DNA of 21,960 bases from an uncultured Verrucomicrobiota bacterium (lineage in GTDB: Bacteria > Verrucomicrobiota > CALLYA01 > CAYNBQ01): contig CAYNBQ010000040.1 of the NCBI GenBank assembly GCA_964395275.1, forward strand, positions 1 through 21,960, read 5' to 3'. The position numbers and the translations under genes are program-made. Numbering within the stretch: the first letter of the stretch is position 1; the number at the start of each line of letters is the position of its first letter. Below the pieces are notes generated by a model. The model had not been told where the DNA came from. It saw only the letters and a list, made by a program, of their open reading frames with translations, and did no database searches. Of the stretch, positions 4,005 through 21,960 are shown piece by piece.

Positions 4005-5029
4005 TGCGACTCGACCGGGCGGGGCGGAGCCGAACCTTCCTGCGATGGGCGGCCGCGTCGGCGATTCTCTGCGCCGCCCCGGCGTGCCGCCGCCGCAAAC
4101 CGCCGCCGGAAGAGCGGGTCGGCGACGAGATCGTCGTCGCCGGCCGGATGTTCCACACCGGCACGCCGGTCGTTCTCTGGTCGGATCCCGGCGGCTACGA
4201 CGCCTACCGGGAAACCTGTTTCTTCGTTCCGGACCGAGTCATGCCCTCTTCGAAGACCTACCGGGGCGGGCCGAAACGATACGGCGTGCGCAACCCGGGG
4301 GAAGGGGAGATCGCGCGGCGGGTGCGCGAGAAAGGCTGGACGCTCGAAAACCTCCGGGACTTCGTCCATCTCTTCGTGATCCACTACGACGCCTGCGGCA
4401 CGTCGAAACGCTGTTTCCGGGTCCTCCACGACGGCCGCGGCCTGTCCGTGCATTTCATGCTCGATCTCGACGGGACGATCTACCAGACCCTCGATCTCCG
4501 CGAACGGGCGCGGCACGCGGGTCTCTACAACAGCCGGTCGATCGGCATCGAGATCGCGAACATCGGCGCGTACGCGGACGGGGAACGGCTGGAGAAGTGG
4601 TATCGACGGGACGGGGACGGGCGGTTGCGCGTCGTCCTGCCCGCGGACGACGAGAGCGAAGGGATCCGCACCCCCGGCTTCGTCGCCCGTCCCGCGCGGC
4701 AGGAACTCGTCGAGGGCGAGATCCACGGAAAACGTTTCCGCCAGTACGACTACACGCCCGAGCAGTACGAAGCGCTGGCCCGCCTCACGGCGGCGCTGCA
4801 CCGGATCTTCCCCCTGATCCGGCTCGACGCGCCGCGGGACGAGGAAGGCCGGGTCCGGACCGACGTGCTCTCCCGCACGGAAATCCTCTCCTTCGGCGGG
4901 CTCGTGGGCCACCTGCACATCTCCTCCCGGAAAATCGACCCGGGACCGGCGTTCGACTGGGAAGGCGTCCTCCGGAACGCCCGCCGCATCTACCGCGAGA
5001 CGTCCGGCGCGCGACGGTCGAATCGCTGA
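4004..5029 (+). CDS. N-acetylmuramoyl-L-alanine amidase, Amidase_2 family, exported or lipoprotein paralog
   Basis: Its ATG shares one base with the TGA of the previous gene (cTGATGc). N-terminus [28 protein letters not shown] is signal-peptide or lipobox-like. The rest is collinear with, and about 60-65% identical to, the upstream paralog, including the [17 protein letters not shown] motif. Track ORF 3335..5029 is an out-of-frame upstream extension through the previous gene and is not real. Confidence 0.8.
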   Translation: MRLDRAGRSRTFLRWAAASAILCAAPACRRRKPPPEERVGDEIVVAGRMFHTGTPVVLWSDPGGYDAYRETCFFVPDRVMPSSKTYRGGPKRYGVRNPGEGEIARRVREKGWTLENLRDFVHLFVIHYDACGTSKRCFRVLHDGRGLSVHFMLDLDGTIYQTLDLRERARHAGLYNSRSIGIEIANIGAYADGERLEKWYRRDGDGRLRVVLPADDESEGIRTPGFVARPARQELVEGEIHGKRFRQYDYTPEQYEALARLTAALHRIFPLIRLDAPRDEEGRVRTDVLSRTEILSFGGLVGHLHISSRKIDPGPAFDWEGVLRNARRIYRETSGARRSNR

Positions 5030-7199: not shown

Positions 7200-8315
7200 C
7201 TACCAGTCCCTCGAGTCCGGGACTTCCAGCCATTCCCCGCCGCGCTCGATCGATTCCCGGCTGACGAGGCCGGGCAGGGTCAGGTCCATCGCCTCGTGGA
7301 TCCCCACGGTCGGCGGTTCTCCGCGGACGACGGCGTCGACGAAGTCGCGGATCACGAAATAGTCGCCGCCCCCGTGGCCCGCCGAGCGGACCGCATCGGG
7401 CAGCTCGCGGAGAAGGTCGGGGAGGAACTCGTCCTCGATCTCTTCGAGGTCCGTCCACCGATGCGGATCCTCGCAACGGTCGGCAAGCCAGATCTTGTGA
7501 TGTTCGCCCGGGTGGCGCGCGGATTCGAAACAGCCTCTGGTTCCCTGCAGCGTGTAGTTGTTCGTCGCATGGGGCCGGTTCGAGAGCATGTCGACCCGGA
7601 TCCGGATCAGTCGCCCGCGCTCGGTTCCGGCCGGCATCAGGCAGGTGTCCTCGTTCTCGTAGGGTTTCCCCTCGGAATCGACGTAGTGATGCCCGGATCC
7701 GACGCAACAGAGGCGGGCGACCCGGTCCCCCTCCATCCACTGCAGGATCGGGCCGAGGCTGTGCGTGCCGTAGGTGATCCCGTTGACGCCCGTCTGCCAG
7801 ATCCGCCGCCACGGGGTGGCGACCTGAAGCCCTTTCAACTCGTGGATGTACTCGCCCTCGGCGTAATAGAGCTCGCCGAAGAAGCCCCGGCGGACCATCT
7901 CCCGGACGACGAGGTTCGAGCGCGTGTAGATGTAGTTCTCGGCCATCGCGTAGACGGCGCCGCTCTCCCGGCAGGCGGCGACCAGTTCGCGGCATTCCTC
8001 CAGGCTCACGGCCGCCGTGACTTCCGACAGGACGTGAATGCCCCGGCGGAGGGCGGCGATCGACATCGGGGCGTGGTGCTGCATGGGCGTGGCGATCAGG
8101 ACGGCGTCCAGTTCGGAACGGTCCAGCATCTCCTCGTAATCCGTCCAGGCCTCGGCCGCGCCGAGGGTTTTCCGCGCGGATTCGACCTTCTCCGGGTCGA
8201 TGTCGCAGACCGCGTGCAGCCGCAGTTCCGGGCAGGCGCGTATCGATTCACCGAAGGACCCGCCGCGGCCCGCGGCGCCCACGACGCCCAGGTTCAGCTT
8301 CTCGATTTCCTGCAT
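7200..8315 (-). CDS. Gfo/Idh/MocA-family NAD(P)-dependent oxidoreductase
   Basis: 371 aa. N-terminal Rossmann fold (LNLGVVGAAGRGGSFGES) with the family-typical layout (EKVESARKTLG...; AVLIATPMQHHAPMSIAALRRGIHVLSEV). ATG at 8313-8315 with a GGTGA-type RBS. Lies 4 nt downstream of the preceding gene's stop. Confidence 0.85.
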   Translation of the reverse strand: MQEIEKLNLGVVGAAGRGGSFGESIRACPELRLHAVCDIDPEKVESARKTLGAAEAWTDYEEMLDRSELDAVLIATPMQHHAPMSIAALRRGIHVLSEVTAAVSLEECRELVAACRESGAVYAMAENYIYTRSNLVVREMVRRGFFGELYYAEGEYIHELKGLQVATPWRRIWQTGVNGITYGTHSLGPILQWMEGDRVARLCCVGSGHHYVDSEGKPYENEDTCLMPAGTERGRLIRIRVDMLSNRPHATNNYTLQGTRGCFESARHPGEHHKIWLADRCEDPHRWTDLEEIEDEFLPDLLRELPDAVRSAGHGGGDYFVIRDFVDAVVRGEPPTVGIHEAMDLTLPGLVSRESIERGGEWLEVPDSRDW

Positions 8316-9406: not shown

Positions 9407-9772
9407 CTACGATGCGGAATCCTCCGGTCCCGGGGAGGCACGGTACTTGATCACGCGCACCCGTTCCAGGGTGACCAGGCCGTCGCCCATCATGGCGTCG
9501 ATCTCCGGCATCAGCCGGTCGATCTTCTCCTGGCTGTCGACGATCTCGATGATGATCGGCAGGTCCTCCGAGAGGCGTAGGATCCGCGCGGTGTGCAGGT
9601 GGCTCTTCGCACCGAACCCCATCGGCCCGCGCAGGACCGTGGCGCCGGCCATCTTCATCTCGCGCGCCTTCATGACGATCGCTTCGTAGAGGGGCTTGCC
9701 GTGCCACCGGTCGCTCTCGCCGATGAAGATCCGCAGCAGGTAGCCGTCGTCCGGAATCTTGATGCCCGTCAT
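9407..9772 (-). CDS. DUF190-family (PII/GlnB-like fold) protein, crcB-associated
   Basis: 121 aa (MTGIKIPDDGYLLRIFIGESDRWHGKPLYEAIV...). Size and sequence pattern match the DUF190 proteins that habitually sit beside crcB. ATG at 9770-9772. Confidence 0.75.
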   Translation of the reverse strand: MTGIKIPDDGYLLRIFIGESDRWHGKPLYEAIVMKAREMKMAGATVLRGPMGFGAKSHLHTARILRLSEDLPIIIEIVDSQEKIDRLMPEIDAMMGDGLVTLERVRVIKYRASPGPEDSAS

Positions 9773-9820
9773 CGTCCCTTTCCTTCTTCCCGTCGCCCGC
9801 GCCTCGCCCGGCTTTCCCCC

Positions 9821-10207
9821 TCACAGTCCGAAGAGACGGACCGCCAGACGCCATCCCGTCCATGCGGCGACCAGTCCGACGACATTGTTCAGCAGAAGAT
9901 TCAGCGCCGCCAGCCGGAACGATCCCGCGGAGGCGAGCGTCAGCGTTTCCCATGCGTACGACGAAAACGTGGTGAACCCGCCGAGAAGACCGACCAGGAG
10001 GGCGATCCGCAGGTCTTCCCGGATCAGGATCGGGCCGCTCAGGGAGGTGGCGAGGAAGCCGATGAAGAAACAGCCGACCACGTTCACCGTCCAGGTGCCG
10101 ACCGGGAAAACCTGGCCTCCGATCCGCTGGGCCCACCCGGAAACGCCGTACCGGAGGAGCGAACCGGTGGCGCCTCCCAGCGCCACGGCGATGATGCGCG
10201 TCCACAT
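9821..10207 (-). CDS. crcB: Fluoride ion channel CrcB/Fluc
   Basis: 128 aa with four TM segments and the CrcB signature motifs (GSLLRY near the N-terminus; GLLGGFTTFSS). ATG at 10205-10207. Confidence 0.9.
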   Translation of the reverse strand: MWTRIIAVALGGATGSLLRYGVSGWAQRIGGQVFPVGTWTVNVVGCFFIGFLATSLSGPILIREDLRIALLVGLLGGFTTFSSYAWETLTLASAGSFRLAALNLLLNNVVGLVAAWTGWRLAVRLFGL

Positions 10208-10302: not shown

Positions 10303-12030
10303 TCACCGGGGTGCAGCCGCCGTTTCCAGCCGGACCGAAACGCGCGGCAGCCAGGCGTCGGTGTGGTACGGCCGTCCTTCCCAGACGTAGTAGACGTCGG
10401 CGTAGGGCCGAATCCGCTTCTTGACGCCGTTGGACTCCCTCTTCGCCAGCTCGGGAGAAAAGACCAGTTCGTACTGCAGTTCGACGGAGGCGCCCGGCGC
10501 GAGTTCCTTCGGCGGTTCGTCCCCCACGAGGCGGGTCTTCACGAGATGATCTTCGCTCGGTTCCACGTCGGGACGCAGCCGGCCGTTGACGAAAACGAAG
10601 GCCGTGCCGCCGGGATAGTCCTTCTCGCTCTTGTCGCCGCAGGTGAAGACCAGGTCGGTCATCGGCGAATCCTCCAGGTTCCGGAAGCGGACCGTGGCGT
10701 GGTACGTCCTGCCGGCGATCACCTCGGGGGCGGTCTTCATCGTGCGCCGGGGGTCGTAGGGAAGGATCTCGAGATCCTTCGCTTCGAGCAGTTGCGCGGT
10801 CACCTCGTGCCGGGGGATGTACGGCGGGAAATGGTAGATCGTGTCGCCCTTGGGTTTGCCCTCGATGTCGATCAAGCCCCAGGGGCGCATGTAGGGCTTG
10901 ATCCAGTTCGGATCCGTGGTGCCGATGAAATAGCCGTCGAGATGGAATCCCTTCAGGTTGCCCTTCTCGTCGTATTCGGCGCGGGCCCGCTTTTCCCAGC
11001 CCCGGCCTCCCCAGTGGTCGTTCAGGACGAAGTAGGAGGCGCCGCAGACCCATTTCGGATCGTATTCGCCCGGCCGCGGCGTGGTGAGGTTGCGCCACCC
11101 GTCGAGAACCGTCTGCCGGTAGTGTTCGATCTCCGCGGGCGTGTAGGGACGCGTTCCCCCCCGGAAGGTCGGATCCTTGTCGATGCTGTCGGGCAGGGGG
11201 AAACAGGACCATCCTTCCGTGAGGATGATCGGGATGTCGGGATCGCCGCGGTAGGCCATCTCCTGGTGGCTTTCGATGACCTGTTCCATGTCGACGAAAC
11301 TGCCGCGGGGTCCGTAGGCGTGGATGGCGAGGATCTCGAAGTTGCCCTTGGCGCCCGCTTCGTAGAGGGCGCCGATGTGGTCGCGGTCGGAGTAGCAGAG
11401 TTGCCCGATGATGAGCCGGTTGTCCGGATGGGCCTTCTTCATGCCGCGGTGCACGGCCTTGATCGGATCCATGTAGTAGTAGTGCCAGTCCGGGAAATAC
11501 GGACGGTACGTCTCGGGAGCGACGAGATCGCGTTCGTTGCCCCCGGTGGAGAAGATCACGCGGTCGCCGTAGGTCTCCCGCGCGTAGCGGCAGGCGGCCT
11601 CCGCCCACTGTTCGAGGAGCCGGTTGTACCGGGGGATGTCGGTGAACCGGAACTTCTCGGCCCAGGGGTTCCCGAAGAACCGGAGATGGCAGATCAGGTA
11701 CTTGTGGTTCCGTTCCCAGGGATCGACGGTCACGCCGCTGAAATCGTAGACCGGTTCGCCGTCGCCGGGATCCTCCTTCTGGGTCGATCCCCAGTCGATC
11801 CCGAAATGGCCGGTGTTCTGTCCGGCGAGATCCTGGAACTTGCGCCGGATCTTGCGCGGCGGGCCGACGTCGTCGCAGTCCTCGCCGGGATCGCATCCCG
11901 GGGCGGTGAGCATGAGCATGAATCCCTCGGGGACCTCGCCGCGCGCCGGGACGGCTTCGCCCGCGCCGGCCGCGACGGCGAGCATTCCAACCAACAACGG
12001 AAAGCACAGATACAGGCGTCGTTCTTGCAC
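10303..12030 (-). CDS. Secreted putative glycoside hydrolase (TIM-barrel, clan GH-A-like)
   Basis: 575 aa. GTG start at 12030 preceded by GAGGAGAA. Sec signal peptide (MQERRLYLCFPLLVGMLAVAAGAGEA). Motifs resembling clan GH-A catalytic regions (NFEILAIHAYGP; IPIILTEGWS). Rich in Trp/Tyr, as expected for a carbohydrate-active enzyme. Family not recognised. Confidence 0.55.
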   Translation of the reverse strand: MQERRLYLCFPLLVGMLAVAAGAGEAVPARGEVPEGFMLMLTAPGCDPGEDCDDVGPPRKIRRKFQDLAGQNTGHFGIDWGSTQKEDPGDGEPVYDFSGVTVDPWERNHKYLICHLRFFGNPWAEKFRFTDIPRYNRLLEQWAEAACRYARETYGDRVIFSTGGNERDLVAPETYRPYFPDWHYYYMDPIKAVHRGMKKAHPDNRLIIGQLCYSDRDHIGALYEAGAKGNFEILAIHAYGPRGSFVDMEQVIESHQEMAYRGDPDIPIILTEGWSCFPLPDSIDKDPTFRGGTRPYTPAEIEHYRQTVLDGWRNLTTPRPGEYDPKWVCGASYFVLNDHWGGRGWEKRARAEYDEKGNLKGFHLDGYFIGTTDPNWIKPYMRPWGLIDIEGKPKGDTIYHFPPYIPRHEVTAQLLEAKDLEILPYDPRRTMKTAPEVIAGRTYHATVRFRNLEDSPMTDLVFTCGDKSEKDYPGGTAFVFVNGRLRPDVEPSEDHLVKTRLVGDEPPKELAPGASVELQYELVFSPELAKRESNGVKKRIRPYADVYYVWEGRPYHTDAWLPRVSVRLETAAAPR

Positions 12031-12198: not shown

Positions 12199-15100
12199 TC
12201 AGTACGTGGTGAGGGTTTCCGAGACGGGGAAGGGGGAGGGGGCGCTTTCCACGGGGACGTCGTCGCGCGAGAGGATGTCGAACGAGACCCCGCCGGCATG
12301 GGGCGTCCCCGCATCGACGCCGTACTCGTACCGGGCGACCCGTTCGCGGTGGACGAGCATCGAAAAGTCCTGCAGCTCGATCTCCTGGTGGAAGCCGCTC
12401 GGCGTATCCCGTTCGCCGGAGTTGATCAGGATCAGCACGTCGTCCATCGGATTCTGAATCCGCAGCACGTACCGGTAGAACCGGGTCTCGTCGCCGACCG
12501 CGACCACGCTCCGCGTTCCGGCAAGCTCGATCCCGTCGTGCAGGACCAGCAGGGTGAACCGACCGTCCGGATCGTCCGTGCGCGCCCGGAACCGGATCTC
12601 GACCCGGTCGCCCGGCATGAGACCGGCGACGGGCCCGCCGGCAAACTGCGTCGTGGTCAGGCGCCACGATTGTCCTTCCACGACGGCTTCGACATCGATC
12701 CGGGCATGGAAGGGAACGACGTAGACCGTCCCCTCCCAGCTTCCGTCCTGCCGGACGCTCTTGAGGAGACCGGTTCGGGATGCGCCGGCGCCGACCTGCA
12801 CGATGTTGTACCGCTGCTCGGGGCGGGCGCCGGCCGGTCGGACCACCGCTCGAACGGGGCCGACGCCGCCCGTGACGCCGGGGCGGGGGACGCCGTCCGC
12901 GGCCAGCGATTCGTACGCCGCACGCGCCGTTTCGTTCCAGCCGGCGTCGTCCCAGGTCATGTGATGCACGAACGAAACCCCGTGCTCGAAGACGTAACGG
13001 ATCTGTTGTTCGGCGGCGGACACGCTCGCGGTGTGCGGATGGTATTCGCCGATCGACACGAGGCCCAGGCCGGAAGAAAACGATCCCTGGATCCAGTTCC
13101 GCGCGCGATCGTACCAGATGCCGTATCGGGTGCCGCCGTACCCGGTTCCGGCGGCCAGGCTCCAGGCGATGGGGGTGATCCGCCGGCCGCTCAGAACGTC
13201 GCCGACGGCGTAGTCCGCCGGGATCTGGTGGGTCTTGATGATCTCCGGAGGGAAACCGGCAAGAAGCGATTCCCGCATGCCTTGGGCGATGCGGAGGTTG
13301 ACCACCCTCCGTTCGTATTCGACCCACGCGTTGTAGAACGGGTTCGACGGGTCGTACGCGTCCCAGGCGCCGCGGCCGAGGTTGCGCGGCGGATCGAAGT
13401 CCTCCCGTCCCGCGAACGACGTGCCGTGGCGGCTGTTGACCTTGGCCAGGGTCGTGTACCGGCGCAGGAGATGATCGTAGAACCCGTCGATCATCGCCGG
13501 GTTGTAGTCGCCGATCGTCTCGTCGTCGGCAACGTAGATCTCGAACTCGTGATTCGGTTCGAGCGCGGCCAGCCGGGACGGGTCGCCGTCCGTTCCGCGG
13601 AACTTCGGCGCGAGACGGCGCAGGTACTCGCGCAGCGGCCACACGATCAACCGCTCCAGGGGCGCCACGTCCGGCGCCCAGGTCATCACGTAGAACCGGC
13701 TGTCGCCCTCGCCGTAGGTCGTTTGGCGATCGAGCCGCGTCAGCGCCGTGAACCGGGGGAGGCCCGTGTCGGGATCGACGGCGTCGTGCCACGCGTCGAA
13801 TGTTCCGATGAACTGCCGATGGGAGGCGGTCGGTTCCCAGACCGACGGAAGACCGAGCGCATACTCCGCCTGGGTGCGTTCGATGAAATCCAGGAAACTC
13901 CCGCCCGCCCAGTGATCGTAGTCTTCGTTGTCGAAATCGACGTTCTCGCTGTACCCGGGGCTGGCGGCGTCGGTGCGGATGTGGCGGAAGGTCCCGGGCC
14001 GGACGAACTCCGACCAGGGATCCGTCGGCGGGGGAGGCGCGAAGAGGGGATCGTCGCTGACCGCGACCCAGTCGACGCGGGCTTCGAAACCGCGGAAGGC
14101 CTCCCACGTGCCGCCGTCGGGAAGGTCCAGCCGAAGGCGGGCGATGACGCCCTCGTGGGGGCTCATACCGGGGGTGGCGTTGGCCGGAAGGTTCAGGCGG
14201 ACCACCTGGGTCCCGTTGTGCAGGGAAAACGCCGCCCGCCCGACCCCGCCTCCTTCCGGATACCAGAAGACGGCCCCGGTGAAGGTCCCCGCGGGGCCTC
14301 CGGAAACGGTCAACGACATCGCGAACTCCTGCAGGACGTCCCCGTCGTAGTCGGCGACCGGTCCGAGGATGTAGGGGTCGAACGGGGATCCGTCATGCAC
14401 CCGAAGCACCAGCGCGCCGGATTCATACCCGGCGATGCAGGAGGAACTCTTCGCGTACCAGCCCTGCGGGTGGGAATCGAAGGTGTAGACCGGCTCCCCG
14501 CGAGGCGGATCGATCGGGTGGATCCGGAAGAGGTTTTCCCGCCGTCCGACGTCGTGCCGGGCGATGTTCCCGGCGTCGTCGATCGTCCAGAGGGTGGAGA
14601 GAAGGGGTTCCTCCGCCCCGGCGGCGACGCGTTCGTCGGCGAAGGCGGATTCCCACGGGCGGAAGCCCGAAGGAAGACCGTCCGCGGCGAGTTCCTTGAG
14701 AAGACCCCGGTCCGGTTCGAGCGCATACAGACGGCCGCCGGGATGATAGGCCAGCAACAGCACGTCCGGACCGCGGACGTGCATCACGGACATCTCCACG
14801 CGGTTCGTCGCCCCTTGCCAGGGCGCCGGCGCCGCCGTCGTCTTGCGCAGAACGCCGTCGCCGTCGTAGAGGAGGATCCGCCGGTTGTCCTCCCCCGCGT
14901 GACGCGACGTCACGGCGATTTCCTCCCCGGCAACGTCCTCCAGGAAATCGCCGACGGCGACGACGAAGGGCGGATCGAGTTCGGACGCGGGAGCGAAGAC
15001 CGATCGAAGGACGCCGTCTTCCCGGAAGATCCGGATCTCCCGGGTGTTCGTCGCCGAGAAGGGGACGGCGACGATCTGCACGTCCGGCGGAAAGATGCGA

Positions 15101-15486
15101 CCGGCGGCGACCCGCACGCCGCCCGTCACGGACGTCGGGTAGGCCAGGAACTGCAGTTCGGCGATCCCGTAGCGGTTCAGGATCCGGACGACCGTGAGGT
15201 TCATGGATGATTCGCCTTGGCCGGCGACGAGACGGGGTCCGGGGGGCACGAGGGGCGGATCGACCTCGGTCTCTGTCCTTTCGAGTTGCGCGGCCAGGTC
15301 GAGATCGGGATCCGGGACCTGGACCCAGCTCAAGCCGTCCATGCCGCGAGCCGGCGTCGCGGCGAGCGTTGAAAGGAGAACCGCCCCGCGGAGGCATCGC
15401 GCGAACCGACGCCTTCGAGCCGTTTCCGCCCCCCTCCGGACCGGGTCCGCGGCCGGGGGGCGATCCTGCGATCGGCGCGTCTTCAC
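12199..15486 (-). CDS. Large secreted multidomain protein, putative glycoside hydrolase (beta-propeller/beta-sandwich N-terminal region plus GH-A-like TIM barrel)
   Basis: 1095-aa ORF. The track start is GTG at 15486; an ATG at 15340-15342 is an alternative. Neither has a convincing RBS. N-terminal twin-arginine-like signal (ARRRRFARCLRGAVLLSTLAATPARG). FG-GAP/propeller-like repeats (VAVGDFLEDVAGEEIAVT; LLYDGDGVLR). Later TIM-barrel-like motifs (LEPNHEFEIYVADDE; VSIGEYHPH; HHMTWDDAGWNE). Family not recognised. Confidence 0.5.
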   Translation of the reverse strand: MKTRRSQDRPPAADPVRRGAETARRRRFARCLRGAVLLSTLAATPARGMDGLSWVQVPDPDLDLAAQLERTETEVDPPLVPPGPRLVAGQGESSMNLTVVRILNRYGIAELQFLAYPTSVTGGVRVAAGRIFPPDVQIVAVPFSATNTREIRIFREDGVLRSVFAPASELDPPFVVAVGDFLEDVAGEEIAVTSRHAGEDNRRILLYDGDGVLRKTTAAPAPWQGATNRVEMSVMHVRGPDVLLLAYHPGGRLYALEPDRGLLKELAADGLPSGFRPWESAFADERVAAGAEEPLLSTLWTIDDAGNIARHDVGRRENLFRIHPIDPPRGEPVYTFDSHPQGWYAKSSSCIAGYESGALVLRVHDGSPFDPYILGPVADYDGDVLQEFAMSLTVSGGPAGTFTGAVFWYPEGGGVGRAAFSLHNGTQVVRLNLPANATPGMSPHEGVIARLRLDLPDGGTWEAFRGFEARVDWVAVSDDPLFAPPPPTDPWSEFVRPGTFRHIRTDAASPGYSENVDFDNEDYDHWAGGSFLDFIERTQAEYALGLPSVWEPTASHRQFIGTFDAWHDAVDPDTGLPRFTALTRLDRQTTYGEGDSRFYVMTWAPDVAPLERLIVWPLREYLRRLAPKFRGTDGDPSRLAALEPNHEFEIYVADDETIGDYNPAMIDGFYDHLLRRYTTLAKVNSRHGTSFAGREDFDPPRNLGRGAWDAYDPSNPFYNAWVEYERRVVNLRIAQGMRESLLAGFPPEIIKTHQIPADYAVGDVLSGRRITPIAWSLAAGTGYGGTRYGIWYDRARNWIQGSFSSGLGLVSIGEYHPHTASVSAAEQQIRYVFEHGVSFVHHMTWDDAGWNETARAAYESLAADGVPRPGVTGGVGPVRAVVRPAGARPEQRYNIVQVGAGASRTGLLKSVRQDGSWEGTVYVVPFHARIDVEAVVEGQSWRLTTTQFAGGPVAGLMPGDRVEIRFRARTDDPDGRFTLLVLHDGIELAGTRSVVAVGDETRFYRYVLRIQNPMDDVLILINSGERDTPSGFHQEIELQDFSMLVHRERVARYEYGVDAGTPHAGGVSFDILSRDDVPVESAPSPFPVSETLTTY

Positions 15487-15589: not shown

Positions 15590-16771
15590 TCACGGCGTCG
15601 CGGGATCCGTATCCGGCCTGTTTCCGACGTCGATCGCGAGGGCGGCGAGGCAGACCACGGCGACCGCCCACGGAAGGAGCAGAGGGACCGCCGCGGGAAC
15701 GCCGCCGATCGTCTCGGGCGGGACGAGCTTCGCCCTGAGGTAGGCGAGCTGGAACGCGTCGATCCCGATCAGGATTCCCAGCCACGGGCGTTCGGCGACC
15801 GTCGCGGCTGCGAAAACGGCCAGCAGAAGGAGCGCGGGAAGAAGATACTTGGCAAAGAGATGGTTCATCAGCATGACCATCAGCAGGTTGAGGCCGACGG
15901 CCGCCGCGGCCCTTCGAGCGAGTGACTCCCGGCGCCGCCGCCACAACGCCCAGAGTCCGATCGCCGCGAGGGAAGGCGGCGCGATGGCCCGGACGGTCCC
16001 GTAGCGCTCCGCCACGTTCCAGTCGCCCGCGACGAAGAGATTCAGGGCCGTCCGCGCCGCGTTCTTCGGCAGGTTCAGGGAGAGGCTTCCCGCAATGCCC
16101 GGTTCGCCGGCCGCCGCGGAATACGCGGTCGCAAACTCGCCCGTCTGCGCCCGGGTGATCGCGACGTAGACGACGGGGATCAGGCATCCGGCCGCGAGGA
16201 GAAGGCGCCGGCGGGTCGTGCGCACGGCGTCCGGGGCGAAGAGGGGGAGCAGGGCGGCGGCGAACGGCTTGACGATCACCGCGTATCCCCACGCCAGCGG
16301 CGCCGCCGGCCGCATCCGGATCGAGAGCAGGATGGTCACCAGGAGGAAGAAGACGAAGATCGTGTTGATGTGCCCCTTCATCGGTTCCCAGATCACCCCG
16401 GGCAGGAGGAGATAGAAAAGGGCCGCAACGGCTCCGGCGCGGTCGCCGCCGATCCGGCGGGCGACGAGCAACAGCAGCAGGGGGTTCAGCAGCGAGAGCC
16501 CGATCCCGAGCCATGCGACGGCGTGATCGGAGCGCGTGACCGCGTAGATCGGGGCGGCCGCCAGCGAGGAGCCGTGGAAACCGGTCGGCGTCAGATCGAT
16601 CCGGCCCTTCTCGACGGGCGCCCGCGCGGCGGCGAGGTAGTCGAACGCGTCGTCGACGAGGCGCACGCGGCAGAGGGAATACGACAGCACGAGCGCGAGA
16701 ACGACGATTCCGGGGAACATCCACGGGGAGAACCGCGGATGTCCGGCGGTTGGGGGCGGCTGCGCGTTCAT
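15590..16771 (-). CDS. Polytopic membrane protein, GT-C-type glycosyltransferase-like (DUF2029/GT87-like)
   Basis: Start placed at ATG 16769-16771 (MNAQPPPTAGHPRFSPWMFPGIVVLALV...). The 175 codons upstream of it in track ORF 15590..17296 are Arg/Ser/Pro-rich, non-protein-like, and overlap acnA. More than 9 hydrophobic helices. An acidic motif in the first loop (RVRLVDDAFDY) is typical of GT-C enzymes. Confidence 0.5.
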   Translation of the reverse strand: MNAQPPPTAGHPRFSPWMFPGIVVLALVLSYSLCRVRLVDDAFDYLAAARAPVEKGRIDLTPTGFHGSSLAAAPIYAVTRSDHAVAWLGIGLSLLNPLLLLLVARRIGGDRAGAVAALFYLLLPGVIWEPMKGHINTIFVFFLLVTILLSIRMRPAAPLAWGYAVIVKPFAAALLPLFAPDAVRTTRRRLLLAAGCLIPVVYVAITRAQTGEFATAYSAAAGEPGIAGSLSLNLPKNAARTALNLFVAGDWNVAERYGTVRAIAPPSLAAIGLWALWRRRRESLARRAAAAVGLNLLMVMLMNHLFAKYLLPALLLLAVFAAATVAERPWLGILIGIDAFQLAYLRAKLVPPETIGGVPAAVPLLLPWAVAVVCLAALAIDVGNRPDTDPATP

Positions 16772-16860
16772 CGGGGCGGATGATACCGCCGGAACCACGG
16801 GGAGGCGAACGGTAGAGCCGGCGGTCCGATTCCTCTTTTCGGCGGATCCGAAGGCGTGCG

Positions 16861-16890
16861 TATAGTACGGGATCTCCGCGGAACGCGGAG
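16861..16890 (+). promoter_or_regulatory. acnA leader: TATAGT -10-like box followed by a perfect 7-3-7 inverted repeat (candidate operator)
   Basis: TATAGT at 16861-16866. ctccgcg-gaa-cgcggag at 16874-16890. Lies 66-95 nt upstream of the acnA ATG in the 184-bp divergent intergenic region. Confidence 0.3.
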
Positions 16891-16955
16891 GAGGACGCGG
16901 CGAAGCACCGGTGGCGCAAACCGGCCGGACCGGCGGCCGAACGAGGGCGAGGGAC

Positions 16956-19667
<2,712 letters not shown>

Positions 19668-19742: not shown

Positions 19743-21362
19743 TCATCCCTCCAGCAGCCCGTGGTACCGGCCCATCCAGTAGGGCAGGAGCCAGAACGTG
19801 CCGCATTCCTCGTTCCGTCCGCTTCCCCCCTCGGCCCGGTAGGGGTTTCCGTTCCACTTGTGCAGGGGACGTTCCCGCCAGGAGAGCGGTTCGAGGAGCT
19901 GGGGTTCGCCGGCCCGTCCGTCGCGGGGATTCCTGCGGATGTCGAGACGATGCAGGTTCCTCGTCGGCCAGTCGACCAGGTCCAGGGGGATCTCCCGCAG
20001 GGATTCTACGGCCAGGTCGGCGTCGCAGGCCCGTCCCGTCGCCGCGCCGTAGATGAAGTTCCAGAGGGGACATCGCTCGGGACGTTCGATCCGCCAGCTC
20101 CGTTCGAGGCTCGCCAGGTAGATCGCCCGCAACTGCGGATCCTTCTCGTAGCGCAGGAGGGGTTCGTAGGAGAGAAACGCCAGTTCGTCGTCGGAATGGT
20201 TGTCTTCCGCGCCGGGGAAATCTCCCGGAAGAATCTTCTGTTCGACGGTGTTCAGGGCGTACCCATGATCCCGGATCAGCTCCGCGGCGGCCGCGGCGTA
20301 TCGCGCCTCCCCCGTGATGTGCACGGCCACCTTGAGATGGGAAAGGATCTCCAGGGAATTGAGTCCGCGTTCCGAACGCCATCGGGGCGAGTCGTTCAGC
20401 TCTTCCGGCGCCCACACGCCCCAGCGGGTCGGACGGCCGTCCAGGTCCACCAGGTGCAGCCCGTGGTCCAGGATGTGGTCCGTCACGCGGCGGACGGTTT
20501 CGCGGATCCGCGCCCGGTCGTCCTCGTCGGCGACCAGGTCGAAGTAGATGCCCCAGGCGTAGTAATGACCCACGATCTCGTCGGAGGAGGTGTCGCCCTT
20601 CCATTCCCATTCGCCGTCGTCGGTCCGGTGCCATTCGCCGTCGGGGTGGTTGCCGAAGCGCTCTTCGGAACGGTGCGTGAGCGCGCGGGCGGGAAATCCC
20701 GGGACGGGGCTCCGTTCTTCCAGCGCGAGAAGGGCGTGGAGCGATTCCCGGGCGCGCTCGCGCGCGGTCTCGTCGCCGGTGACCGCCCACCGGTACGATT
20801 CGGCGGCGACGTACATCGCCGTCCAGAGCCCGTCGTTGTCGCCGATCCCGTGGCGCCATCCGTCGAGATCGCCGGGCGAGGGCAGGTTGCATTCGATGAC
20901 GAACCCGAACCGCCGGTGGCGCGTGTCGGTCAGCCGTTCGTAGTGGGCCGCCTTCTCCTCGAGGGTCATCGGCAGGAAACGGATCCGGCTCCCGCCCTTC
21001 GCGGTCCGCACGAGAATCGACCCGTCGTCGGCGCACGCGAGTGCTTCCACGCGGTCGTCGGGCAGCCATCGCGGGCCGGCGTAGATTTCGAAGCGGCCGC
21101 CGCTCCATCGGACGACGCCCTGCGGGGTGCCGAACCAGAGATCGCCGTCCGGGGAGACCGTTGCGCAGGCGACGCCGGCGACCGGAAAGGGGTCGGGCGC
21201 GGCGCGTGCCGGTCCCCGCCCGGCGGCGGATTCGATCATCAACCTCCCGTCGCGCACGAGATAACGGTGTCCCCGGGCATCTTCCACGAAAGGGGGAGTC
21301 GGGGGCGGGTTTCCGGGCTCGAGGGAGACGAACTCGCGAACGGGCTGGCGGAAGGTCTTCAT
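19743..21362 (-). CDS. Hypothetical protein (Trp/Asp-rich, possibly alpha/alpha-toroid glycosidase-like)
   Basis: 539 aa. ATG at 21360-21362 preceded by GGGAGGAG. Coding-like composition, no signal peptide. No family recognised with confidence. Convergent with acnA. Confidence 0.6.
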   Translation of the reverse strand: MKTFRQPVREFVSLEPGNPPPTPPFVEDARGHRYLVRDGRLMIESAAGRGPARAAPDPFPVAGVACATVSPDGDLWFGTPQGVVRWSGGRFEIYAGPRWLPDDRVEALACADDGSILVRTAKGGSRIRFLPMTLEEKAAHYERLTDTRHRRFGFVIECNLPSPGDLDGWRHGIGDNDGLWTAMYVAAESYRWAVTGDETARERARESLHALLALEERSPVPGFPARALTHRSEERFGNHPDGEWHRTDDGEWEWKGDTSSDEIVGHYYAWGIYFDLVADEDDRARIRETVRRVTDHILDHGLHLVDLDGRPTRWGVWAPEELNDSPRWRSERGLNSLEILSHLKVAVHITGEARYAAAAAELIRDHGYALNTVEQKILPGDFPGAEDNHSDDELAFLSYEPLLRYEKDPQLRAIYLASLERSWRIERPERCPLWNFIYGAATGRACDADLAVESLREIPLDLVDWPTRNLHRLDIRRNPRDGRAGEPQLLEPLSWRERPLHKWNGNPYRAEGGSGRNEECGTFWLLPYWMGRYHGLLEG

Positions 21363-21482
21363 CGGCGGCTCCTCCCGGGGGGAACGTCGCCGATTCTACC
21401 GGGACCGTCGCGGGAATCGAGCGTTCCGCGTGACGCGCCGTCCCGCTCCGGCCCCGCGAAGGAAAACCTGCTGTAAGGGGCC

Positions 21483-21960
21483 GACCCCGTCTTGCCCTAC
21501 GTCTTGTCCGCCGTCTTGTCCTCCGTAGTGCCGCATTTGCGGCACGAAGGAGGAAGTTCCGGCATGTGGGACGAAGGCGGACGTTCCGTGGTCGCCCGAA
21601 CGGGGTCGGGCTCCTACTTTTGGTTGCGCGAGTAAAGAGAGAGTAGGAGGCCGATCCCGACGCGCCCTACGTCTTGTCCTCCGTAGTTCCGCGAGCGCGG
21701 AACGAAGGGGGAAGTCCTGCCGGGTGCGTGGAACAAGGGAGAAAATCGCCCGAGTATGGGACGAAGTAGGGTCGGCCGATTCGACCCACAAAGGAAAACC
21801 CGTGGAGCCGCGACGCCCTGTTCTCCTTCGTAGTCCCGCCGGCGGCCCGGGACTGCTGCGCCCCCGGAACGAACCCACTCCGTGGGTTCTCATCCCACCC
21901 TTTCGTGGGAAGGGCGGGTATGTTGGCGAACCAAGACGGAGCCGGGAATACCGAGTGGCT
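21483..21960. repeat. Cluster of REP/MITE-like imperfect palindromic repeats (intergenic, continues to the window edge)
   Basis: The shared unit gccctacgtcttgtcc(tccg) occurs at about 21494 and 21664. Each copy is followed by a long hairpin: tcctcc-gta-gtgccgc-attt-gcggcac-gaa-ggagga at 21519-21554, and tcctcc-gta-gttccgcg-ag-cgcggaac-gaa-ggggga at 21677-21712. The tgggacgaag motif is also repeated (21566, 21757). A third related palindrome (agtcccgccggcggcccgggact) lies near 21828-21850. A 9/10-bp-stem hairpin with a 25-nt AT-rich loop lies at 21609-21652. Confidence 0.6.

Follow-up and report, generated by a model that had tools for sequence, protein, structure and literature searches.

What is the 480-bp structured, non-coding stretch that closes a 21,960-base piece of DNA from an uncultured Verrucomicrobiota bacterium (assembly GCA_964395275.1, contig CAYNBQ010000040.1)? 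The full 21,960 bases, a high-GC (~67%) fragment of bacterial chromosome, are called the window, and positions refer to the window unless another locus is named. An initial annotation had noticed there a cluster of long imperfect palindromes resembling repetitive extragenic palindromes (REPs) or miniature inverted-repeat transposable elements (MITEs). Our answer, to which we give a probability of about 60%, is that the cluster comprises two intact copies and one decayed copy, head to tail, of a small, non-coding, non-autonomous hairpin repeat of the GTAG-tagged REP type. It is close to certain that the cluster belongs to a dispersed family of GTAG-tagged hairpins, whose unit recurs at more than 100 unrelated loci of other genomes; mobilisation as a single strand by an enzyme like the REP-associated tyrosine transposases (RAYTs) is a more tentative proposal, which we hold at well short of even odds. 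With the cluster taken as genuine REP-type hairpin repeats, the main interpretation of the initial annotation stands.

Two long imperfect palindromes, the units, follow one another head to tail at 21473-21790, and a decayed third unit runs to about 21915 (Table 1). Repeat finding reproduced the two composite units with inverted-repeat arms that had been described, as direct repeats of 64 nt (21512-21575 and 21670-21733, 77% identity) and 42 nt (21473-21514 and 21643-21684, 83% identity). TGGGACGAAG is present at 21567 and 21757, and matches to the 22-mer CCCTACGTCTTGTCCTCCGTAG are confined to the cluster within the window, where shuffled sequences lead one to expect none. The core of each unit follows one plan, CTTGTCCTCC then GTAG, a variable stem-loop and CGAAGG(A/G)GGA, and one or two similar layers wrap it. 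The core arms form a 6-bp helix, UCCUCC/GGAGGA, followed by a symmetric GUA/GAA internal loop, which both core hairpins keep, and then by a distal stem of 7-8 bp. Over 17 nt, the arms of core hairpin 1 (21519-21535 and 21538-21554) are 88% complementary and those of core hairpin 2 (21677-21693 and 21696-21712) 82%. What separates the distal stems of the two copies is a set of compensatory changes (GTGCCGCA/TGCGGCAC versus GTTCCGCG/CGCGGAAC), as first noted. Copy 1 is longer by one 12-mer; the insertion reported in copy 2 is present, between GGGGGA and TGGGACGAAG, but measures 32 nt rather than about 35.

Table 1. Coordinates of the repeat cluster, its parts and flanking genes in the window, with the insertion-bearing genes at four other loci (L-numbers). 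R1 is the covariance model of the core.
Feature	Position	Strand	Observation
Leader CCCGCGAAGGAAAACC...	21453-21472	+	Recurs before unit 3: direct repeat D4, 21453-21468 versus 21785-21800, 88% identity
Unit 1, long nested imperfect palindrome	21473-21618	+	RNA fold -85.6 kcal/mol, z = -6.3
Left-arm 12-mer array, CCGTCTTGTCCT x3.3	21487-21526	+	Stacked left arms of nested layers; Tandem Repeats Finder
Core hairpin 1	21513-21557	+	R1 match 45.9 bits, E = 4e-8; fold -26.5 kcal/mol, z = -5.3
Core 1, CTTGTCCTCC	21515-21524	+	
Core 1, GTAG	21525-21528	+	
Core 1, GTGCCGCA-TT-TGCGGCAC	21528-21545	+	
Core 1, CGAAGGAGGA	21545-21554	+	
Unit 1, right part of next layer	21555-21582	+	AG, small hairpin GTTCCG..TGGGAC, then CGAAGGCGGAC
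Junction hairpin	21601-21659	+	Fold -39.2 kcal/mol, z = -7.5
Unit 2	21643-21790	+	Design as unit 1, one 12-mer fewer, 32-nt insertion in second hairpin
Core hairpin 2	21671-21715	+	R1 match 46.8 bits, E = 3e-8; fold -23.4 kcal/mol, z = -3.8
Core 2, CTTGTCCTCC	21673-21682	+	
Core 2, GTAG	21683-21686	+	
Core 2, GTTCCGCG-AG-CGCGGAAC	21686-21703	+	
Core 2, CGAAGGGGGA	21703-21712	+	U.G wobble
Unit 3, degenerate	21785-21915	+	Leader as unit 1; TTCTCCTTC-GTAG (GTAG 21830-21833); hairpin GTCCCG/CGGGAC
Gene for conserved 539-residue hypothetical protein	19743-21362	-	Third-position GC 0.84; diverges from the cluster
Possible gene start	21920-21960	+	ATG preceded by GGGAAGGG; only 13 codons inside the window
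XrtA-system deacetylase with insertion	L038:2447-3706	-	In-frame insertion of ~81-115 residues
XrtA-system deacetylase with insertion	L059:6179-7540	-	As above
XrtA-system deacetylase with insertion	L071		As above
XrtA-system deacetylase with insertion	L081		As above

The wrapping layers pair as well. In unit 1 the outer arms (21473-21490 and 21600-21617) are 83% complementary, and CGAAGGCGGAC pairs with GTCCGCC at 21506-21512, its left partner being CTTGTCCGCC-GT; CCGCC/GGCGG in the outer layer versus CCTCC/GGAGG in the inner one is itself a compensatory pair. Unit 2 has an outer pair CCCTAC (21665-21670)/GTAGGG (21766-21771), and its fold reaches z = -2.3 on the + strand and -1.4 on the - strand. 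The third copy that had been proposed does keep a leader and a GTAG hairpin (stem GTCCCG 21833-21838, CGGGAC 21848-21853), but it is a degenerate remnant: R1 gives no match there at E <= 1, its fold is not significant (z = -1.65), and further 3' lie unrelated small hairpins (GAACCCAC/GTGGGTTC and CCCAC/GTGGG). R1 finds exactly two copies in the window, at 46-47 bits, and extra diverged copies in many other loci. The whole stretch 21440-21960 folds with z = -6.15, and every unit folds more stably on the + than on the - strand, with RNA and DNA parameters alike.

Between the units, a hairpin with an AT-rich loop had been put forward as a small RNA or a protein-binding site. The hairpin is real; its arms (21601-21618 and 21642-21659) are 18 nt long, 89% complementary and separated by 23 nt (21619-21641), and the 25-nt stretch described as AT-rich is 56% A+T. 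It is not an independent site, however: unit 1 contributes its 3' outer arm as the 5' arm of the hairpin, and unit 2 contributes its 5' outer arm, homologous to the start of unit 1 (direct repeat D3), as the 3' arm. The alternative pairing is thus produced by the tandem arrangement, and the junction hairpin and the outer stem of unit 1 are mutually exclusive.

How far the core extends beyond the window was followed in loci (L007, L010 and so on) retrieved with core patterns: CGTCTTGTCCTCCGTAG-N12-26-CGAAGG in species-representative genomes, a related pattern in viruses and, in metagenomes, a pattern that demanded a long distal stem, with the caveat that the left arm of every collection was fixed by its pattern. 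The genome scan gave 23 loci in at least seven named phylum-level groups (labels include Hydrogenedentota, Opitutaceae/Verrucomicrobiota, Kiritimatiellia, Planctomycetota, Patescibacteria with Komeilibacteria, Saccharibacteria and Babeliales), the metagenome scan 79 and the IMG/VR viral scan eight. Four metagenome-assembled genomes (MAGs) matched on two contigs each, and up to four copies lie in 2.6 kb. As a core of ~40 bases is almost unchanged in many phyla and in phages, we regard the element as a REP-like dispersed repeat of unusually wide reach. Copies less than 400 nt from a contig end (28/103) are to be expected of repeats that break assemblies. Plasmid and cultured-phage databases gave no blastn match, and literature searches by core sequence and encoded peptides returned only unrelated papers and primers; the family is apparently undescribed.

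Covariation across copies, a check that the initial annotation had called for, is strong. Across 71 non-redundant copies from metagenomes, the part that the pattern did not constrain pairs over a mean of 4.38 consecutive bp, against 0.69 after shuffling (maximum 1.03), and these copies carry 30 different distal stems. In the right arm, which the pattern did not fix, U.G pairs occur 53 times and C.A only six times, and the folding strand is therefore the CUUGUCCUCC...GUAG strand. A frequent GGAUGGA variant of the right arm keeps all six pairs with one bulged U.

Copies with several layers have on the left a run of 12-mers ending in GT and on the right a run of AG, small hairpin and CGAAGGNGGA. 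The numbers of left and right units vary together, (1,1) in 66 copies, (2,2) in nine and (3,2) in six, with few unbalanced, and in the window and L016 the variant arms correspond layer by layer, with CCGCC/GGCGG surrounding CCTCC/GGAGG. An 'empty' outer frame is present in Kiritimatiellia loci. Slippage acting independently on both arms may be an alternative source of such layers.

Twelve-mer arrays like that of unit 1 recur in L010-L013, L017-L019, L023 and L027-L029, and they bring to mind an array of double-stranded sites for a DNA-binding protein, DnaA-box-like, in a divergent promoter region. In high-GC bacteria the DnaA box reads TTGTCCACA; the TTGTCC(T/G/A)CC left arms, spaced at 12 nt, resemble it, and the variants TTGTCCTCC, TTGTCCACC (L007) and TTATCCTCC (Kiritimatiellia) fit a TT(A/G)TCC degeneracy. 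The 12-mers are tandem and the left arm is the best-conserved part of the element. Two mismatches (CACA to CTCC) nevertheless fall at the box positions regarded as most critical, copies lie inside genes, and the window has neither a GC-skew switch nor a dnaA/dnaN context. The strong stem-loop covariation and the strand-asymmetric wobbles indicate folding of a single strand, and we think a protein-site array very improbable.

The chief rival is a structured RNA acting on translation, that is, a leader or sponge that sequesters or presents a ribosome-binding sequence and that would here be the 5' leader of a putative + strand gene near 21920. The arms are a perfect Shine-Dalgarno (SD) sequence, AAGGAGG, paired with an anti-SD-like CCUCC, and their sameness in all phyla would be explained by the universal 3' end of 16S rRNA; since the element is palindromic, such a pair is available in either orientation. 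The arms are also more conserved than GTAG, one strand accepts U.G wobbles, the core does not vary between orthologous sites (see below), and the exclusive pairing of junction hairpin and unit 1 outer stem means that alternative structures exist. Many sense copies lie 20-60 nt before a start codon (L040, L051, L056, L094, L096, L098, L112, L114 and the Kiritimatiellia loci), but orientation and distance to genes vary, the downstream genes are unrelated, and of 75 copies flanked by 400 nt or more at each end, 22 are antisense inside open reading frames (ORFs) of at least 120 codons. With no promoter-like site found, no matching Rfam family, and an AUG after the copy 1 SD (21564) that is out of frame relative to copy 2, an RNA acting on translation seems to us unlikely.

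The cluster region is non-coding. All six frames across it show a flat codon-position GC of 0.58-0.67, against a third-position GC of 0.84 in the neighbouring gene, and a 165-codon ORF that spans it has no Pfam match and no homologue among 5.8 billion proteins. One might still picture small translated ORFs or translational-coupling units, similar to mycobacterial interspersed repetitive units (MIRUs), or part of a gene that continues past the window. The sub-units of 12 and 18 nt are multiples of three, five of six consensus frames are open, and the Kiritimatiellia version has AGGAG-N5-ATG and an ORF whose stop overlaps the next start. In the window a 23-codon ORF (MWDEGGRSVVARTGSGSYFWLRE; 21564-21635, +) begins 9 nt past the core 1 GGAGGA; the matching ATG of unit 2 is in a different frame, so this ORF is probably not a gene. 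Distal stems that differ by 10-11 nt in length, frame-shifting indels among copies, the missing codon-position GC bias and the orphan 165-codon ORF leave the coding explanation scarcely credible.

Other structured elements fared no better. Rfam at gathering thresholds had zero matches in the window (the best sub-threshold match was Methylosinus-1, 21.5 bits against a threshold of 145), at E <= 1 the core was left uncovered in 12 other loci, and tRNA/tmRNA and Rfam scans gave only tRNAs elsewhere plus one Acido-Lenti-1 RNA beside a copy. In a CRISPR array, identical repeats of 25-40 nt recur regularly, every ~60-75 nt, around unique spacers; here the core-to-core spacing is 158 nt, the flanks are repeated too and there are only two copies. 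Hammerhead-type ribozyme cores, a tandem minisatellite, a DnaA-box cluster or origin and a coding sequence were likewise rejected from the sequence.

The REP type is defined by a GC-rich stem-loop with a stem of 5-13 bp, a loop of 2-20 nt and GTAG at one end. In the window GTAG stands at the foot of 6-8 bp stems in all three units, and it lies directly at the stem foot in more than 100 other loci too; the complementary stem changes expected within such a family are seen in the 30 stems of the 71 copies. GTAG-tagged REPs are known from eight phyla including the PVC superphylum (Planctomycetes, Verrucomicrobia, Chlamydiales), with stems of 5-13 bp, complementary stem changes and G-T pairs, with clusters that reiterate units and flanking DNA in tandem, and with intragenic copies, some of them in frame (Di Nocera et al. 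2013, PMC3733652). Some lie inside small palindromes, such as the CCGSSCC..GGSSCGG of T. roseum, and RAYT transposases are their presumed mobilisers (PMC3733652). The window family is like these REPs and the bacterial interspersed mosaic elements (BIMEs) built from them in having GTAG at the 5' foot of a GC-rich stem, a short loop and many copies (PMC3733652; Nunvar et al. 2010, PMC2817692). It is unlike them in its 10-nt arms (CTTGTCCTCC and CGAAGGAGGA), conserved across phyla and better kept than GTAG, in its head-to-tail units where REP dimers are usually head-to-head or tail-to-tail, and in that no RAYT was found in the window or 706 kb of flanking loci; its peptides are absent from the intragenic REP lists of PMC3733652. 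REPINs (Bertels and Rainey 2011, PMC3116915) are likewise small non-autonomous repeats in a larger hairpin and are believed to be mobile as single-stranded DNA, but they consist of two inverted REPs, whereas the window hairpin is made of nested layers of one element and its units are direct.

The basic element is ~30-45 nt long, with left arm CTTGTCCTCC, GTAG, a freely varying but pairing stem-loop and right arm CGAAGGAGGA, and it is its + strand that folds, as single-stranded DNA or RNA. Larger units would arise by self-insertion, one element (CTTGTCCTCCGT/AG-hairpin-CGAAGGAGGA) coming to lie inside another between GT and AG; the window units would then be nests of two to three layers, duplicated in tandem with their flanks. 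We infer that an enzyme acting in trans spreads the element by recognising the folded single strand, as in the REP/RAYT and IS200-IS605-type model, and that the element has no dedicated regulatory role at the window locus.

In-frame copies also occur within genes. A polysaccharide deacetylase of the XrtA system (TIGR03006) is interrupted in three related strains by the core plus heptamer repeats. With the insertion, TIGR03006 matches in two pieces; after deletion of 81 residues in silico it matches in one (1-271), with a score of 409 bits instead of 394. Length differences between strains, 21 and 54 nt, keep the frame. A second repeat-derived segment occurs further along these deacetylases (..ALCSMPYAQ.., ..SEIRNRQS..). 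Another in-frame copy, on a Babeliales contig (L024), lies in a 307-codon ORF that reads like a lipoprotein, and the copy encodes ...SSSFAKASSSAKATEDKTAD...; translation of these repeats yields peptides of the ..FAKATEDK.. and ..YGGQD.. kind. On two viral contigs (L032:8172-8216 and L036:6005-6030) the element is within the N-terminal 140 codons of lambda-family portal-domain ORFs, where it either precedes the true start or is in frame. By carrying the element, phages could transfer it from host to host.

Of 101 copies, 17 have 7-nt flanks that continue one another across the core at six or more of seven positions, where 2.4 would be expected. Those 17 cores are in register with surrounding tandem heptamer arrays, each locus having its own heptamer (GCGCTAT, ATTGCGG, GAGCGCG, CCTGAAC, CTGATGT; examples are L098, L105, L078, L051, L041, L045 and L058), and CAAGGTG-type repeats occur in L038 away from the cores. 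The heptamer flanks could be a 7-bp target duplication or result from insertion into pre-existing arrays; intergenic heptamer repeats as such are already known (PMC4679880).

With MITEs such as Correia and ERIC the element shares its small size, its non-coding nature and its imperfect terminal inverted repeats (CTTGTCCTCC versus CTTCCTCC). Unlike them, it has no related insertion sequence and no consistent target-site duplication, the 17 of 101 copies lying in heptamer arrays where continuity of phase is indistinguishable from a 7-bp duplication and nested copies having no duplication, and selection falls on the internal hairpin too, not on the ends alone. A parent insertion sequence was rejected, no transposase ORF standing beside any copy among ~300 flanking ORFs. 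Cyanobacterial small dispersed repeats (SDRs), in work of 2008 by Elhai and colleagues, are reportedly hairpins of ~20-45 nt that nest, lie within arrays of heptameric short tandemly repeated repetitive (STRR) sequences and have no transposase of their own. The analogy is close; sequence and host range differ, and the window copies are outside heptamer arrays. Rickettsia palindromic elements (RPEs) are confined to a genus, 100-150 bp long and unrelated in sequence to the window family. Like them, the present element is palindromic and can sit in frame inside conserved protein genes, adding a hydrophilic peptide (partly PMC3733652).

Several points weigh against a REP-type repeat as we propose it. 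No RAYT or other transposase is present in the window, and tblastn with E. coli RayT over 706 kb of flanking loci gave no match, although a single distant query makes this a weak test. Among ~300 flanking ORFs no transposase family is enriched; RAYT genes are single-copy per genome, and absence near the copies is therefore weak evidence. Head-to-tail is the rarest dimer type among described REPs (PMC3733652), and the 22-kb window contains only one cluster. The core is nearly identical across phyla, whereas REP families are usually specific to a species or genus. Diverged copies keep the arms CTTGTCCTCC and GGAGGA better than GTAG, a misfit with GTAG as the key recognition element. Finally, at the orthologous site in the three diverged deacetylase strains the core is identical at 41-42 of 42 positions and adjacent third codon positions at 52-68%; such invariance is more suggestive of selection or homogenisation than of selfish DNA left behind passively.

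A more novel but rather doubtful reading takes the core, CUUGUCCUCC-GUAG-hairpin-CGAAGGAGGA, for an undescribed micro-element whose range would take in Patescibacteria, Babeliales, PVC bacteria, Hydrogenedentota, an Armatimonadota-type genome and phages, and which selection or continual re-copying would keep near-invariant. It would be either a new class of self-nesting mobile hairpin with a widely shared mobilising activity, or a motif useful to the host whose SD/anti-SD-like arms engage a universal partner, for example the ribosome.

The surroundings of the copies are varied. The ~300 flanking ORFs match 83 and 132 different Pfam families, none of them enriched, and copies lie in mixed orientation relative to neighbouring genes. 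On a Planctomycetota contig an Acido-Lenti-1 RNA (RF01687, 56.9 bits; L017:3864-3909, +) is ~110 nt from the element, and near the Hydrogenedentota copies L007 has an Acido-Lenti-1 lookalike at about 7815-7870; several repeat families seem to accumulate in the intergenic regions around these copies. In L007 a different repeat, CAGTGCCCTCCGT(G/A)A..TCCGTGGTTCA, occurs twice immediately upstream of the element (7240-7275 and 7343-7375) and has CCTCCGT in common with the left arm of the core. The rumen Kiritimatiellia-type loci (L010-L013, L018, L019, L023, L027-L029) carry a longer composite version, for example at L011:4390-4700 and L028:2590-2690 and 4150-4280, consisting of an AGGAG-N5-ATGAAACCCTTTGCACGAATCAAC start, a possible small ORF MKPFARINLSSVLSSVALAKEE... 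and then AT-rich CCAAT-type hairpins. Copies of it, all facing the same way, are spaced at 0.9-1.9 kb and separated by small variable genes (zinc-ribbon membrane proteins, Sel1, AbiEii, AAA_14/DUF4143 and a 23S_rRNA_IVP four-helix-bundle gene). The arrangement looks cassette-like. An integron attC site has R'' (RYYYAAC) and R' (GTTRRRY) boxes that pair at the hairpin base, and by reading the sequence we found no such AAC...GTT pair in these arrays or in the window.

In the window itself, the cluster begins 121 nt before the ATG of the divergent gene for the 539-residue protein, in agreement with the ~120 bp first given. A protein search with this protein returned an entry that is 100% identical (P0001) and thousands of homologues, which carry Armatimonadota MAG labels. 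The repeat was not found in six orthologous loci of the gene, where the upstream regions are short, and R1 had zero matches in three orthologous control loci; the element is therefore not tied to this gene. On the other side a + strand gene may start at ATG 21920, to judge from the few codons available (third-position GC 10/13, counted by hand). Other genes are ordinary (SPFH/NfeD, rubrerythrin, amidase, ion channel, GFO/IDH oxidoreductase, inositol monophosphatase, DUF190, CrcB and aconitase). The DUF190 and CrcB (fluoride channel) genes adjoin each other at 9407-10207 (-), and no fluoride riboswitch or other Rfam family was detected across the whole window. Two large ORFs of 575 and 1095 codons (10303-12030 and 12199-15486, both -) have gene-like third-position GC and no Pfam domain. 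The longest aconitase ORF (16911-19667, +) overlaps a 568-codon ORF on the minus strand (15590-17296) by ~385 nt; the aconitase Pfam domain begins at residue 89, so the true start is probably further downstream.

The cluster is ordinary in kind, and unusual in its conservation across phyla, its apparent novelty and its signs of constraint. For the window, a 480-bp structured non-coding stretch is explained as repeat DNA, with a warning against annotating the 165-codon ORF or a small RNA there. For the family, a hairpin of ~40 nt whose 20 arm nucleotides hardly change across distant phyla is hard to square with REPs as lineage-specific elements. The element may be recognised by the ribosome, by a phage function or by an enzyme of the RAYT kind; knowing which would help to understand the passage of the smallest mobile DNAs between phyla and would also account for the low-complexity peptides that arise when the repeats are translated.

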